A stretch of DNA of 64,000 nucleotides from Escherichia coli (GTDB lineage Bacteria > Pseudomonadota > Gammaproteobacteria > Enterobacterales > Enterobacteriaceae): assembly GCF_036507355.1 (NCBI RefSeq), contig NZ_AP027877.1, one strand, 5' to 3'. The notes beneath the pieces are model-generated. The model ran no database searches, was not told where the DNA came from, and saw only the letters and a program-made list of their open reading frames with translations. Each line of letters opens with the position of its first letter. Position 1 is the first letter of the stretch. This document shows positions 11,451 to 38,048 of this stretch, piece after piece. The translations under genes and the position numbers were made by a program.

Positions 11451-11605
11451 GCGTAATGGCGCGCCGTGGGAAGCGCGGACATTAATTAACCAACTGCACT
11501 GCGTGTCTTTCAGGATCAAAGGTTTTCGCGGTAGCGGGATGCGTCGTGTTGATGACGACCATGCCCGACAGTTGCAATTCGTGGCAAAAATGCAGGAATA
11601 AAACA

Positions 11606-13846
11606 ATGAACAAGAAGATTCATTCCCTGGCCTTGTTGGTCAATCTGGGGATTTATGGGGTAGCGCAGGCACAAGAGCCGACCGATACTCCTGTTTCACA
11701 TGACGATACTATTGTCGTTACCGCCGCCGAGCAGAACTTACAGGCGCCTGGCGTTTCGACCATCACCGCAGATGAAATCCGCAAAAACCCCGTTGCCCGC
11801 GATGTGTCGGAGATCATCCGTACCATGCCAGGCGTTAACCTGACCGGTAACTCCACCAGTGGTCAGCGAGGGAATAACCGACAGATTGATATTCGCGGTA
11901 TGGGTCCGGAAAACACGCTGATTTTGATTGACGGCAAGCCGGTAAGCAGCCGTAACTCGGTGCGTCAGGGCTGGCGTGGCGAGCGCGATACCCGTGGTGA
12001 TACCTCCTGGGTGCCACCTGAAATGATTGAACGTATTGAAGTTCTGCGTGGTCCGGCAGCTGCGCGTTATGGCAACGGCGCGGCGGGCGGCGTAGTTAAC
12101 ATCATTACCAAAAAAGGCAGCGGCGAGTGGCACGGCTCCTGGGACGCATATTTCAATGCGCCAGAACATAAAGAGGAAGGTGCCACCAAACGCACTAACT
12201 TTAGCCTGACCGGTCCGCTGGGCGACGAATTCAGCTTCCGCTTGTATGGCAACCTCGACAAAACTCAGGCTGACGCGTGGGATATCAACCAGGGCCATCA
12301 GTCCGCGCGTGCCGGAACGTATGCCACGACGTTACCAGCCGGGCGCGAAGGGGTGATCAACAAAGATATTAATGGCGTGGTGCGCTGGGACTTCGCGCCT
12401 CTGCAATCACTCGAACTGGAAGCGGGTTACAGCCGCCAGGGTAACCTGTATGCGGGTGATACCCAGAACACCAACTCTGACGCTTACACTCGCTCGAAAT
12501 ATGGCGATGAAACCAACCGCCTGTATCGCCAGAACTACTCGCTGACCTGGAACGGTGGCTGGGATAACGGCGTGACCACCAGCAACTGGGTGCAGTACGA
12601 ACACACCCGTAACTCGCGTATTCCGGAAGGTCTGGCGGGCGGTACCGAAGGGAAATTTAACGAAAAAGCGACACAGGATTTCGTCGATATCGATCTTGAT
12701 GACGTGATGCTGCATAGCGAAGTTAACCTGCCGATTGATTTCCTCGTTAACCAGACGCTGACGCTGGGTACGGAGTGGAATCAGCAACGGATGAAGGACT
12801 TAAGTTCCAACACCCAGGCACTGACCGGAACGAATACCGGTGGCGCTATTGATGGCGTGAGTGCCACCGACCGTAGCCCGTATTCAAAAGCAGAAATTTT
12901 CTCGCTGTTTGCCGAAAACAACATGGAGCTGACTGACAGCACCATCGTAACGCCGGGGCTGCGTTTCGATCATCACAGTATTGTCGGCAATAACTGGAGC
13001 CCGGCGCTGAACATATCGCAAGGTTTAGGCGATGACTTCACGCTGAAAATGGGCATTGCCCGCGCCTATAAAGCGCCGAGCCTGTACCAGACTAACCCGA
13101 ACTACATTCTCTACAGTAAAGGTCAGGGCTGCTATGCCAGCGCGGGCGGCTGCTATCTGCAAGGTAACGATGACCTGAAAGCAGAAACCAGCATCAACAA
13201 AGAGATTGGTCTGGAGTTCAAACGCGACGGCTGGCTGGCGGGCATCACCTGGTTCCGTAACGATTATCGCAATAAGATTGAAGCAGGCTATGTTGCTGTA
13301 GGGCAAAACGCAGTCGGCACCGATCTCTATCAGTGGGATAACGTGCCGAAAGCGGTGGTTGAAGGTCTGGAAGGATCGTTAAACGTACCGGTTAGCGAAA
13401 CGGTGATGTGGACTAATAACATCACTTATATGCTGAAGAGTGAAAACAAAACCACGGGCGACCGTTTGTCGATCATCCCGGAGTATACGTTGAACTCAAC
13501 GCTGAGCTGGCAGGCACGAGAAGATTTGTCGATGCAAACGACCTTCACCTGGTACGGTAAGCAGCAGCCGAAGAAGTACAACTATAAAGGTCAGCCAGCG
13601 GTTGGACCGGAAACCAAAGAAATTAGTCCTTACAGCATTGTTGGGCTGAGCGCGACGTGGGATGTGACGAAGAATGTCAGTCTGACCGGCGGCGTGGACA
13701 ATCTGTTCGACAAACGTTTGTGGCGTGCGGGTAATGCCCAGACCACGGGCGATTTGGCAGGGGCCAACTATATCGCCGGTGCCGGGGCGTATACCTATAA
13801 CGAGCCGGGACGCACGTGGTATATGAGCGTAAACACCCACTTCTGA
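11606..13846 (+). CDS. fepA: TonB-dependent ferric enterobactin outer membrane receptor FepA
   Basis: 746 aa from the ATG at 11606 (MNKKIHSLALLVNLGIYGVAQA signal peptide); TonB box DTIVVTA; C-terminal aromatic residue (HF). Confidence 0.97.
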   Translation: MNKKIHSLALLVNLGIYGVAQAQEPTDTPVSHDDTIVVTAAEQNLQAPGVSTITADEIRKNPVARDVSEIIRTMPGVNLTGNSTSGQRGNNRQIDIRGMGPENTLILIDGKPVSSRNSVRQGWRGERDTRGDTSWVPPEMIERIEVLRGPAAARYGNGAAGGVVNIITKKGSGEWHGSWDAYFNAPEHKEEGATKRTNFSLTGPLGDEFSFRLYGNLDKTQADAWDINQGHQSARAGTYATTLPAGREGVINKDINGVVRWDFAPLQSLELEAGYSRQGNLYAGDTQNTNSDAYTRSKYGDETNRLYRQNYSLTWNGGWDNGVTTSNWVQYEHTRNSRIPEGLAGGTEGKFNEKATQDFVDIDLDDVMLHSEVNLPIDFLVNQTLTLGTEWNQQRMKDLSSNTQALTGTNTGGAIDGVSATDRSPYSKAEIFSLFAENNMELTDSTIVTPGLRFDHHSIVGNNWSPALNISQGLGDDFTLKMGIARAYKAPSLYQTNPNYILYSKGQGCYASAGGCYLQGNDDLKAETSINKEIGLEFKRDGWLAGITWFRNDYRNKIEAGYVAVGQNAVGTDLYQWDNVPKAVVEGLEGSLNVPVSETVMWTNNITYMLKSENKTTGDRLSIIPEYTLNSTLSWQAREDLSMQTTFTWYGKQQPKKYNYKGQPAVGPETKEISPYSIVGLSATWDVTKNVSLTGGVDNLFDKRLWRAGNAQTTGDLAGANYIAGAGAYTYNEPGRTWYMSVNTHF

Positions 13847-13883
13847 TGCTAACGTCAGATTGTTGACAAAGTGCGCGTCGTTC

Positions 13884-13984
13884 ATGCCGGATGCGGCGTG
13901 AACGCCTTATCCGGCCTACAAAAATCTTGCCAATTCAATATATTGCAGGACCATGTAGGCCTGATAAGCGTAGCGCATCAGGCA
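13884..13984. repeat. REP/BIME element (two inverted REP palindromes) between fepA and entD
   Basis: gccggatgcggcgtgaacgccttatccggcctaca and tgtaggcctgataagcgtagcgcatcaggc are canonical REP sequences in opposite orientation. Confidence 0.8.
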
Positions 13985-14020
13985 GTTTTGCGTTTGTCAT
14001 CAGTCTCGGATATGGTCGAT

Positions 14021-14641
14021 ATGAAAACTACGCATACCTCCCTCCCCTTTGCCGGACATACGCTGCATTTTGTTGAGTTCGATCCGGCGAATTTTTGTGA
14101 GCAGGATTTACTCTGGCTGCCGCACTACGCACAACTGCAACACGCTGGACGTAAACGTAAAACAGAGCATTTAGCCGGACGGATCGCTGCTGTTTATGCC
14201 TTGCGGGAATATGGCTATAAATGTGTGCCCGCAATCGGCGAGCTACGCCAACCGGTGTGGCCTGCGGAGGTATACGGCAGTATTAGCCACTGCGGGGCTA
14301 CGGCATTGGCCGTGGTTTCCCGTCAACCGATTGGCGTTGATATCGAAGAAATTTTTTCTGCGCAAACAGCGACCGAATTGACAGACAACATTATTACACC
14401 AGCAGAACACGAGCGACTCGCAGACTGCGGTTTAGCCTTTTCTCTGGCGCTGACACTGGCATTTTCCGCCAAAGAGAGCGCATTTAAGGCAAGTGAGATC
14501 CAAACTGATGCAGGTTTTCTGGACTATCAGATAATTAGCTGGAATAAACAGCAGGTCATCATTCATCGTGAGAATGAGATGTTTGCTGTGCACTGGCAGA
14601 TAAAAGAAAAAATAGTCATAACTCTGTGCCAACATGATTAA
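14021..14641 (+). CDS. entD: Phosphopantetheinyl transferase EntD
   Basis: 206 aa from the ATG at 14021 (MKTTHTSLPFAGH...); the longer track ORF from 13871 runs through the REP element and is not credible. Start could also be the ATG at 14012. Confidence 0.92.
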   Translation: MKTTHTSLPFAGHTLHFVEFDPANFCEQDLLWLPHYAQLQHAGRKRKTEHLAGRIAAVYALREYGYKCVPAIGELRQPVWPAEVYGSISHCGATALAVVSRQPIGVDIEEIFSAQTATELTDNIITPAEHERLADCGLAFSLALTLAFSAKESAFKASEIQTDAGFLDYQIISWNKQQVIIHRENEMFAVHWQIKEKIVITLCQHD

Positions 14642-14661
14642 TTGACAACATCTGGTACGAT

Positions 14662-15130
14662 TCGCCCGCAGCCATCACTGACTGCGGGCGAAAGTGTAAA
14701 GCAGGTGCCTTACCACTCTGACCTGACAACCGGATATGCGGGGATTGCTCCCCGCACAACGGCTACTTCTTCGGTTCGTAAGCGAGAACAGCCTTAAACT
14801 CAATATTACGTTCCTTTACGGTGAACTCACACAGCGAGTCTCCGACCAGAAGCGTAAATCCCAGCACCGTCAAACACAGCACTATGACTGCCACAAGGGC
14901 ATATTTCGTCAGCATGTTTATATTGCCTCCATGCGAAGAAGGGACTACCATCCGAGTTGTTGAGGCTCGGAGTGGCAGCCCCAGGATTGATAGAAATATC
15001 TCCTGGGGCTTCATCTTTCCAGACCTCAGAGTTAACCTGAAACCGGAAAGCTTCAGGCACCCGCCGTTATCTTACCCTTCCTTAGCAAAATAGCTGTTTA
15101 TTTATACAGTGAATCCTGTTTCGGACTTCT
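14662..15130 (-). other. hokE-like type I toxin-antitoxin locus, copy 1 (repeat unit)
   Basis: About 470-bp unit containing a Hok toxin ORF, upstream mok-like leader and a terminal inverted repeat (cgcccgcag...ctgcgggcg); repeated with 503-bp period at 15165-15632. Confidence 0.8.
14763..14915 (-). CDS. hokE: Hok-family membrane toxin (HokE-like), copy 1
   Basis: 50-aa peptide [50 protein letters not shown], typical Hok/Gef toxin with one transmembrane helix. Confidence 0.85.
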
Positions 15131-15164
15131 GTCGGCAAAACTCATCATTGCTCTTAAAACGAAA

Positions 15165-15632
15165 TCGCCCGCAGCCATCACTGACCGCGGGCGAAAGTGT
15201 AAAGCAGGTGCCTTACCATCCTGACCTGACAACCGGATATGCGGGGATTACTCCCCGCACAACGGCTACTTCTTCGGTTCGTAAGCGAGAACAGCCCTGA
15301 ACTCAATATTACGTTCCTTCACCGTAAACTCACACAGCGAGTCTCCGACCAGAAGCGTAAATCCCAGTACCGTCAAACACAGCACTATGACTGCCACAAG
15401 GGCATATTTCGTCAGCATGTTTATATTGCCTCCATGCGAAGAAGGAACTACCATCCAAATTGTCTGGTTTGGAGTGGCAGCCCCAGGGTTGATAGAAATA
15501 TCTCCTGGGGCTTCATCTTTCCAGACCTCAGAGTAAACCTGAAACCGGAAAGCTTCAGGCACCCGCCGTTATCTTACCTTTGCTTAGCAAAATAGCTGTT
15601 TATTTATACAGTAAGTCCTGTTTCGGACTTCT
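15165..15632 (-). other. hokE-like type I toxin-antitoxin locus, copy 2 (repeat unit)
   Basis: Second unit, roughly 95% identical to copy 1 with scattered substitutions and a 1-nt indel in the leader. Confidence 0.8.
15266..15418 (-). CDS. Hok-family membrane toxin (HokE-like), copy 2
   Basis: 50-aa peptide identical to copy 1 except K41R (…[14 protein letters not shown]). Confidence 0.85.
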
Positions 15633-15848
15633 CACTCCCCATTTGATCAACTGAAGCTGAACCCGTTTTTTTCTGCATGCCTCAATCGTCAAAATTCTTC
15701 GCCACCAGCCAGCCGTGCCATAACTTGTCACATTGCAAAAGTAGCCAATTTGCTTCAGTCACCATCACCAAAAAAAGAAATATTCCAGAACTTCCGCATC
15801 TCGCCCAGCCGCTCCGACTTCTATACTGAATAGAAAACGCCAACATAA

Positions 15849-16976
<1,128 letters not shown>

Positions 16977-37001: not shown

Positions 37002-37078
37002 TGGCGCGCCCTGCAGGATTCGAACCTGCGGCCCACGACTTAGAAGGTCGTTGCTCTATCCAACTGAGCTAAGGGCGC
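37002..37078 (-). tRNA. argU: tRNA-Arg (anticodon UCU), argU
   Basis: Reverse complement reads GCGCCCTTAGCTCAGTTGGATAGAGCAACGACCTTCTAAGTCGTGGGCCGCAGGTTCGAATCCTGCAGGGCGCGCCA: cloverleaf with TTCGAATCC T-arm, UCU anticodon and CCA end. Confidence 0.93.
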
Positions 37079-37320
37079 GTTGATACCGCAATGCGGTGTA
37101 ATCGCGTGAATTATACGGTCAACCCTTGCTGAGTCAATGGCTTTTGATCTGGTTGCTGAACAAGTGAACGACCGCGTCTGATTTTCTGATTTATTTCGCT
37201 ATAGCGGCAAACAAATGCACACCGCTGCGCATCTGAATCAAGAAAACCCGTATTTTCATGTATCAAAGTACAATTTACCGCCCTAACGGAAAATTGTCCG
37301 CTCCTATGAGACTGGTAACT

Positions 37321-37529
37321 ATGAAACCAACGTCGGTGATCATTATGGATACTCATCCTATCATCAGAATGTCTATTGAAGTTCTGTTGCAAAAAAACAG
37401 TGAATTGCAGATTGTCCTGAAAACGGATGATTACCGCATAACCATCGATTATCTCCGAACCCGTCCTGTTGATTTAATCATTATGGATATAGACTTGCCC
37501 GGAACAGACGGTTTTACCTTCCTGAAAAG
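37321..37529 (+). pseudogene. fimZ: 5' fragment of response-regulator gene fimZ (receiver domain only), truncated by IS1
   Basis: Encodes MKPTSVIIMDTHPIIRMSIEVLLQKNSELQIVLKTDDYRITIDYLRTRPVDLIIMDIDLPGTDGFTFLKR, then runs into the IS1 terminal repeat (…VMTPTY*). Confidence 0.85.
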
Positions 37530-37544
37530 GGTAATGACTCCAAC

Positions 37545-38048
37545 TTATTGATAGTGTTTTATGTTCAGATAATGCCCGATGACTTTGTCATGCAGCTCCA
37601 CCGATTTTGAGAACGACAGCGACTTCCGTCCCAGCCGTGCCAGGTGCTGCCTCAGATTCAGGTTATGCCGCTCAATTCGCTGCGTATATCGCTTGCTGAT
37701 TACGTGCAGCTTTCCCTTCAGGCGGGATTCATACAGCGGCCAGCCATCCGTCATCCATATCACCACGTCAAAGGGTGACAGCAGGCTCATAAGACGCCCC
37801 AGCGTCGCCATCGTGCGTTCACCGAATACGTGCGCAACAACCGTCTTCCGGAGCCTGTCATACGCGTAAAACAGCCAGCGCTGGCGCGATTTAGCCCCGA
37901 CATAGCCCCACTGTTCGTCCATTTCCGCGCAGACGATGACGTCACTGCCCGGCTGTATGCGCGAGGTTACCGACTGCGGCCTGAGTTTTTTAAGTGACGT
38001 AAAATCGTGTTGAGGCCAACGCCCATAATGCGGGCTGTTGCCCGGCAT
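37545..38048 (-). CDS. insB: IS1 InsB (transposase frame; InsAB' is made by -1 frameshift)
   Basis: 167-aa [28 protein letters not shown]… overlapping the insA 3' end in the -1 frame. Confidence 0.95.

Follow-up and report, generated by a model that had tools for sequence, protein, structure and literature searches.

Two tandem, apparently intact hokE/sokE type I toxin-antitoxin modules at the entD-ybdK site, a common natural polymorphism of Escherichia coli

The paradigm for type I toxin-antitoxin loci of the hok/sok kind is that of plasmid R1, in which the mok reading frame overlaps hok in another frame. A close chromosomal relative of the locus described here is hokE/sokE of E. coli K-12 (b4415/b4835), where a single hokE unit is split by IS186B within a 3'-UTR hairpin (GCGGGG-N6-CCCCGC), with a target duplication GGGAGTAATCCC. 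No mokE is annotated in K-12, although an in-frame precedent exists in the same genome, as mokC and hokC use one common stop codon.

The HokE coding sequence is toxic when expressed (bioRxiv 10.1101/2025.08.07.668861), and hokE has been counted among the LexA-box genes, with a heterology index (HI) of 4.9 (PMC11228462; PMC2826370). A gene annotated as hokE appears in a table of ciprofloxacin-induced genes of EDL933, an O157:H7 strain (PMC11125564), and hokE of K-12 was not induced by AZT (PMC11228462); the K-12 copy that lacked AZT induction is the one disrupted by IS186. As summarized in bioRxiv 10.1101/2025.08.07.668861, Pedersen and Gerdes tested hokA, hokB and hokC of the chromosome and saw no post-segregational killing and no activation by rifampicin, so that loci of this kind may lack function even when their sequence is intact. 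Local duplication of hok genes has also been described: 10% of them lie in 'islets' of 2-6 copies generated in this way (bioRxiv 10.1101/2025.08.07.668861, a 2025 preprint), and the hok-2.1/hok-2.2 pair of strain NRG857c is a duplication of a hokE homologue (PMC7232551).

Here we analyzed the hokE region of a 64-kb window, that is, the whole 64,000-nucleotide stretch of an E. coli genome (contig NZ_AP027877.1) to which all coordinates below refer. The interval between entD and ybdK very probably harbors two intact hokE/sokE modules in tandem at a conserved site, a common and old natural polymorphism whose mode of action would be R1-like and linked to the SOS response. The basis for this reading is sequence, conservation, predicted structures and distribution in the population, with the mechanism drawn from the anatomy of the locus, the paradigm of R1 and the LexA literature.

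Layout and distribution of the tandem

Both units are on the minus strand, arranged head to tail in the interval from entD to ybdK. Unit 1 (14662-15130; 469 bp) is proximal to entD and is the downstream copy on the hok strand, whereas unit 2 (15165-15632; 468 bp) is proximal to ybdK and is the upstream copy; they differ from copies 1 and 2 of O157:H7 by 1 nt and 7 nt, respectively. The neighboring genes are fepA (11546-13846), entD (13871-14641, with its stop at 14641) and ybdK (15858-16976, with its start at 15858), so that the gene order fepA-entD-hokE-ybdK is the synteny expected of the hokE locus. A blastn comparison of unit 1 with the window gave 94.9% identity over 469 nt, and a repeat search of the window returned two direct-repeat blocks (14662-14960/15165-15463, 96%, and 14964-15130/15466-15632, 95%) spaced by 503 and 502 bp, which places a 1-nt indel between the blocks. 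By pairwise alignment, the units differ by 23 substitutions and this one 1-nt indel, 24 differences in total. Two diverged tandem units of about 470 bp with a period of 503 bp had been proposed in a sequence-only reading of the region, and all three comparisons bear this out. The 34-bp spacer between the units (15131-15164, minus strand) is unlike either outer flank and is kept in other tandem genomes.

No insertion sequence was found between entD and ybdK in the window, in agreement with the earlier remark that IS186 is missing from this locus. The K-12 state, described in the same reading as one hokE beside an IS186, also proved correct, with the added detail that the IS186B element interrupts the unit itself; the K-12 match to the window ends at position 14741. 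In strain ES8 the hokE locus carries both IS186 and IS150. A plasmid origin was considered and discarded, since the matches in PLSDB were almost only mislabelled chromosomes plus a few large E. coli replicons, and the locus is thus chromosomal.

To count the tandem in other genomes we used a 109-nt query centred on the spacer, for which a coverage of at least 80% is possible only where the junction between copies exists. At least 2057 of the 5426 complete E. coli genomes contain this junction, with 100% matches in O157:H7 and many others. Among 40 evenly spaced matches to the whole locus, about 40% were tandem, about 22% consisted of a single uninterrupted unit and about 27% were broken at the K-12 position, the remaining 10% being partial matches outside these three states. 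Some of the sampled tandems carry an SDR/ABC gene island in place of the entD flank. The window itself is nearest to O157:H7 (99.0% over 12 kb), and PGAP annotates hokE twice in O157:H7 as in many other genomes. When one genome of each species was scanned, this tandem turned up at its usual site and with its usual spacer in E. whittamii, in Escherichia sp. MOD1-EC7003 and in a divergent genome named E. coli, whereas E. albertii and Escherichia sp. E1V33 had a single hokE copy. The presence of the tandem across Escherichia species indicates that the duplication is old.

The tandem hokE pair is thus a common, annotated and already published copy-number polymorphism. The suggestion that the arrangement was peculiar to this strain has to be abandoned, given its occurrence in at least 2057 of the 5426 genomes and in other Escherichia species, and its description in the literature (PMC7232551; bioRxiv 10.1101/2025.08.07.668861). 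These data also confirm that K-12, whose only copy is disrupted by IS186, does not typify E. coli at this locus. Studies of hokE carried out in K-12, on SOS induction or persistence for instance, are therefore likely to under-report events in the roughly 40% of strains, including O157:H7, that have two intact copies.

Elements of the two modules

Each unit contains a hok open reading frame of 50 codons plus stop on the minus strand, ORF 1 at 14763-14915 and ORF 2 at 15266-15418, as the sequence-only reading had reported. Six differences separate the two coding sequences, of which five are synonymous and the sixth produces the sole change between the proteins, K41 in Hok 1 to R41 in Hok 2, so that the K41R change named in that reading is correct. 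The assignment to the hokE type of type I toxins was upheld by the match of the ORFs to Pfam HOK_GEF (PF01848; E = 2.5e-8), by the identity of Hok 1 to K-12 HokE at 49 of 50 residues and by the entD-ybdK synteny; the NCBIfam Hok models also match both ORFs, with scores below their curated cut-offs. A 90-aa ORF on the plus strand (14821-15093) was rejected as spurious, since no protein family matches it and the frame is not kept from strain to strain; it often carries the PGAP label 'hypothetical protein, frameshifted'.

Upstream of each hok gene, the Rfam model RF01794 matched over its full length at 14907-15062 (leader 1; 86.5 bits) and 15410-15564 (leader 2; 80.2 bits), both on the minus strand and above the gathering score of 59. 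These matches sit on the hok sense strand and extend as far as the hok AUG; what the model describes is thus the hok mRNA leader and not Sok. The leaders begin at 15062 (5' end GGGUGCC) and 15564. A pattern search for CTGT-N8-ACAG returned only two matches in the 64-kb window, one per unit (15094-15109 and 15596-15611), located at -32 to -47 from the hok 5' ends and identical in both units. These LexA boxes had been missed in the sequence-only reading. The hok promoters can be assigned only weakly, by reading of the sequence: a -10-like hexamer TAAGAT lies 6 nt upstream of the 5' end of leader 1 (15069-15074, minus strand), with its counterpart in unit 2 at 15571-15576 (minus strand), which would make for weak promoters, and a consensus promoter scan called no sigma-70 site in the hokE region.

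The full-length hok RNAs (15062 to 14658 and 15564 to 15158) fold better than shuffled controls, with z-scores of -8.8 and -7.2, respectively. In these minimum free energy structures, obtained in silico only, nucleotides 1-8 of each RNA (GGGUGCCU) are base-paired to AGGCACCU, close to the 3' end; in unit 1 the fbi-like element at 14703-14710 pairs with 15055-15062, and in unit 2 that at 15206-15213 pairs with 15557-15564 (all on the minus strand). Such predicted end pairing corresponds to the fold-back (fbi/tac) that characterizes hok mRNAs. A hairpin with a 14-bp stem closes each unit on the minus strand. That of unit 2 (15165-15194) is followed by UUUCGUUUU and was called by the terminator scan, whereas that of unit 1 (14661-14692), found by repeat search and folding, has no U-tract and was missed by the scan. 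These hairpins had been described earlier as a terminal inverted repeat, which is right as far as the repeat goes, one at the 3' end of each unit; they are of the terminator type and not the ends of a mobile element. The 3'-UTR hairpin GCGGGG-N6-CCCCGC is intact in both units (14738-14755 and 15241-15258, minus strand), as seen by comparison with K-12 and by alignment of the units, the former being the position at which IS186B is inserted in K-12.

The positions of the Sok antisense RNAs were transferred from sokE of MG1655, which is annotated as a 60-nt RNA beginning 44 nt upstream of the hokE AUG and has a homologous region in both units. On this basis, Sok-1 is predicted at 14959-15018 (60 nt) and Sok-2 at 15462-15520 (59 nt), both on the plus strand, with a predicted fold that consists of a 10-nt single-stranded 5' tail, one hairpin and a U-rich tail. 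Each is preceded by a promoter-like site, TTGCCT and TACCAT separated by 17 nt (14923-14951 for Sok-1 and 15426-15454 for Sok-2, plus strand), whose hexamers are unchanged in 31 of the 31 units compared; they fit 8 of 12 consensus positions and therefore fall below the threshold of a consensus scan.

The predicted target of Sok on the hok mRNA is a hairpin at 14947-14976 in unit 1 (stem UCCGAG/CUCGGA, loop CCUCAACAA) and at 15450-15478 in unit 2 (stem UCCAAA/UUUGGA, loop CCAGACAA, which includes the 1-nt deletion), both on the minus strand. In both copies this hairpin forms once the 3' end is removed in silico. It is also found in the consensus structure of 19 distinct leaders, in which two of its stem pairs have changed on both sides (G-C to A-U); the same consensus contains a hairpin that pairs the GGAGG of hok with CCUUC. 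As for compensation between ucb (the Sok-target region) and the downstream box (dcb), no consistent compensatory pairing was shown beyond recognition allele A, the allele to which the dcb variant GAGUGG is linked.

A putative mok-like frame starts in each unit at an AUG located 12 codons upstream of hok and in frame with it, giving 62 codons (14763-14951 and 15266-15454, minus strand). It is proposed from reading of the sequence, by analogy with mokC/hokC. The AUG in question (14951/15454) forms part of the 3' arm of the Sok-target hairpin, at a distance of 8 nt from the 5' end of Sok. Of the upstream frames, only the 62-codon extension is conserved across alleles, and its AUG is not preceded by a clear Shine-Dalgarno sequence. 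Longer in-frame extensions of hok exist (83 aa from an ATG at 15014 in copy 1, and 98 aa from a GTG at 15562 in copy 2), but both hinge on the 1-nt indel and were rejected as mok, since indels at two sites shift the frames among alleles and these extensions are not conserved coding sequence. The 'mok-like leader' attributed to each unit in the sequence-only reading therefore stands as a hok leader (RF01794), and its mok component is weakly supported, with no mokE in K-12 and no clear Shine-Dalgarno.

Taken together, these elements suggest the following mechanism. A weak promoter overlapped by the LexA box would transcribe each hok mRNA, with more transcription during the SOS response. The full-length mRNA would be inert, its 3' fbi element being paired with the 5' end, until slow trimming of the 3' end allowed the leader to adopt another fold in which the Sok-target hairpin and the translation start are exposed. 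Sok, a short RNA presumably made constitutively from the opposite strand, would bind through its single-stranded 5' tail and block translation, probably promoting cleavage as well. Wherever Sok was outrun or insufficient, the 50-aa membrane peptide Hok would be made and the cell depolarized. Both copies appear intact because the changes in the coding sequences are mostly synonymous, the Sok hexamers and LexA boxes are identical, the full-length RNAs fold with paired ends and the stem of the target hairpin is compensated. Counting against activity are the weak hok promoter, the lack of a U-tract after the unit 1 hairpin, the absence of an evident mok start with a Shine-Dalgarno and the repeated IS hits on the locus.

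Divergence at the Sok recognition site and rival readings

The differences between the copies had been described as scattered substitutions with a 1-nt indel. The indel was confirmed, but the differences are not evenly scattered, as 7 of the 24 fall within 15 nt (14954-14968; binomial P = 7e-6), a clustering that the sequence-only reading had also missed. Five of these seven map to the single-stranded tail that makes up the first 10 nt of Sok, and the remaining two to the arm of the target hairpin on the opposite side. When 31 units from 19 genomes were compared, the highest nucleotide diversity was that of the Sok tail/target (pi = 0.30, compared with a unit mean of 0.045), whereas the adjoining 40 nt are essentially invariant, as is the sequence between the mok-like AUG and that of hok (pi of 0-0.006). 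At least six alleles of this recognition module were found among the units compared, and the two copies were hetero-allelic in 14 of the 14 tandem genomes that could be evaluated, that is, those with both leaders intact. The position of a given allele within the tandem varies, allele B being distal to entD in the window and proximal to entD in p11A. Three genomes chosen among the junction matches, of which two had more than one recorded junction place, contained no three-copy array, all being two-copy. It can be envisaged that the allele combinations arose as deletions from an A-B-C ancestor of three copies.

A reading that goes further, and that we put forward tentatively, as improbable though not negligible, is that this pattern reflects functional insulation. 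The tandem copies would be kept hetero-allelic at the ~10-nt Sok tail/target loop, so that each antitoxin mainly controlled the mRNA of its own toxin and the pair behaved as two independent SOS-gated switches with partly orthogonal antitoxins, not as a gene dosage effect; the six or more 'specificity alleles' would be maintained and shuffled by unequal crossing-over and gene conversion. Besides the clustering, the diversity peak and the constant heteroallelism, predicted duplexes of the 22-nt Sok tails fit this scheme, as the cognate pairs (-50.6 kcal/mol for Sok-1 with hok-1 and -48.8 kcal/mol for Sok-2 with hok-2) were more stable than the crossed ones (-30.2 kcal/mol for Sok-1 with hok-2 and -39.2 kcal/mol for Sok-2 with hok-1). 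Moreover, the two hok coding sequences of E. whittamii are identical and have three private substitutions in common, while their flanks and recognition modules differ, which points to gene conversion that did not erase the difference in recognition.

However, any mutation in a cis-encoded antisense RNA necessarily alters its target as well, and the loop is under neither coding nor promoter constraint; it may therefore be no more than the portion of the unit with the weakest constraint, subject to neutral drift. The other ~50 nt of Sok are nearly identical in the two copies, so that the full duplexes are predicted to be very stable in any combination (-103 to -113 kcal/mol). In addition, the sampled genomes are few and phylogenetically related, and the heteroallelism could just reflect the age of the duplication. 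The two antitoxins may be partly non-interchangeable, and the divergence at the recognition site is equally compatible with selection for such non-interchangeability and with neutral drift. If it were functional, the tandem would offer a natural case of antisense-RNA specificity evolving between adjacent paralogues.

A second alternative, which we regard as quite improbable, takes the tandem as a decaying relic, in which one or both copies would be inactive and the chromosomal hok genes would be selfish remnants tolerated as silent. The behavior of hokA, hokB and hokC summarized above would fit such silence, as would the weakness of the hok promoter, undetected by the scan, and the repeated insertions into the locus (IS186 in K-12; IS186 and IS150 in ES8) suggest that its loss is tolerated or favored. 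Decay would nevertheless be hard to reconcile with two intact ORFs whose changes are mostly synonymous, with the near invariance of the sequence between the mok-like and hok AUGs, and with strong RNA folds in which changes in the stem are compensatory. The tandem has also been kept across Escherichia species, the HokE peptide is toxic on expression (bioRxiv 10.1101/2025.08.07.668861) and hokE is listed as induced by ciprofloxacin in EDL933 (PMC11125564). Finally, the wrong expansion of a single unit during assembly, for which nothing speaks beyond the general risk that repeats pose, has a negligible chance of being correct, since the copies differ at 24 positions and the two-copy structure, the spacer and the copy-specific variants are common to thousands of independent complete assemblies; the units are genuine diverged paralogues, as had been proposed. 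Two intact hokE/sokE modules in tandem thus remain the preferred reading.

Comparison with known systems

The locus closely resembles the tandem hokE of O157:H7 and of the AIEC strain NRG857c (hok-2.1/hok-2.2), with which it has in common the two units, the spacer, their order and the period of about 503 bp. These tandems differ only in their alleles: Hok of O157:H7 copy 2 carries L18P, and other lineages mix other recognition alleles. With hokE/sokE of K-12 the window shares the entD-ybdK site, a toxin that is 98% identical, the leader, the Sok region, the LexA box and the 3' elements. In contrast to the two uninterrupted units of the window, K-12 has one unit in which IS186B parts the fbi element and the terminator from the gene, and the recognition alleles of the window, A and B, are both unlike the D' allele of K-12.

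The resemblance to hok/sok of plasmid R1 extends to the Hok/Gef toxin, a predicted antisense Sok (about 60 nt, folding into one hairpin behind a single-stranded 5' tail), the RF01794 leader, the predicted pairing of the 5' and 3' ends (tac/fbi) and a hairpin that hides the Shine-Dalgarno of hok. The loci of the window differ from R1 in being chromosomal and not plasmid-borne, in the LexA box at the hok promoter and in a mok-like frame that would be in frame with hok. For chromosomal loci, as noted above, the tests of hokA, hokB and hokC gave no post-segregational killing (as summarized in bioRxiv 10.1101/2025.08.07.668861).

As local head-to-tail duplications of a small toxin gene together with its cis-antisense RNA, the two hokE/sokE units also resemble the ldrA-C/rdl and ibs/sib arrays, from which they differ in their toxin and RNA families. 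Antisense recognition specific to each paralogue has been reported for ibs/sib.

Sok target-loop diversity and probable recombination between the copies

Within the hokE unit, the 5' tail of the predicted antisense RNA Sok and its target loop together make up the hypervariable spot, located at 14954-14968 in the entD-proximal copy (copy 1) and at 15457-15470 in the ybdK-proximal copy (copy 2). Nucleotide diversity (pi) reached 0.30 at this spot, compared with a unit mean of 0.045 (31 units), and at least six alleles of it were found among the 31 hokE units. The two copies carried different alleles of the tail and target loop in 14/14 evaluable tandem genomes.

In the tandem of E. whittamii (L018, 2696-3667), the hok coding sequences of both copies are identical and have three private substitutions in common, whereas the parts of the units flanking them differ at 3-9 positions, a pattern which indicates gene conversion between the copies. 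The single-copy unit of EH031 (L006, 563-1031) matches copy 2 of the ET791-type tandem in its 5' promoter part and copy 1 of the same tandem type in the rest, beyond the promoter part. This mosaic unit looks like the product of a crossover, and would fit an unequal recombination event deleting one unit.

Insertion sequences at the hokE locus

Both copies in the window carry a small 3'-UTR hairpin, GCGGGG-N6-CCCCGC, at 14738-14755 and 15241-15258. IS186 has a target preference for GGGG-N6/7-CCCC, and in K-12 it sits in this hokE hairpin, with the target duplication GGGAGTAATCCC. In strain ES8, IS186 adjoins copy 1 and an IS150 is found inside the leader of copy 2. From these insertions in K-12 and ES8, the hokE locus therefore appears to be a recurrent target of IS elements.

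Unit boundaries, flanks and antisense ORFs

The terminator-type hairpin of unit 1 (14661-14692) is 20 nt from the stop codon of the convergent entD gene, and no U-tract was found at it on either strand. In p11A, WP4-W18, MOD1-EC7003 and R7, an island with genes for two SDR oxidoreductases and an ABC permease takes the place of the tandem's flank on the entD side, and ends about 8 bp from this hairpin. Further away, the fepA-entD intergenic region (13875-13962) contains a REP-like element, whose match to naRNA4 falls short of the gathering score. The ES036 sRNA model also matches in this region, with 40.5 bits (gathering score, 37.6).

The ORFs antisense to the hok leader (14821-15093 and 15239-15595, + strand) are annotated by PGAP as "hypothetical protein" in many genomes, where they are usually frameshifted. 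A protein family search with them returned no match, and they are probably annotation noise.

Elsewhere in the window, an ORF for an IS1-family transposase (37545-38048) comes after tRNA-Arg(UCU) (37002-37078), with a gene for an envY-like AraC regulator immediately on the other side. The corresponding interval of K-12 holds the DLP12 prophage, ompT and appY, none of which was seen at 37002-38048.

Codon 46 of hok

In both copies, hok codon 46 is TAC followed by G (Tyr46; 14778-14780 and 15281-15283) and falls in the predicted hairpin loop CUUACGAAC. This TAC-G motif showed no variation in the units compared. According to a preprint, the hokE mRNA is A-to-I edited at the Tyr46 codon, yielding Cys, and hokB is likewise edited, by TadA (bioRxiv 10.1101/2025.08.07.668861).
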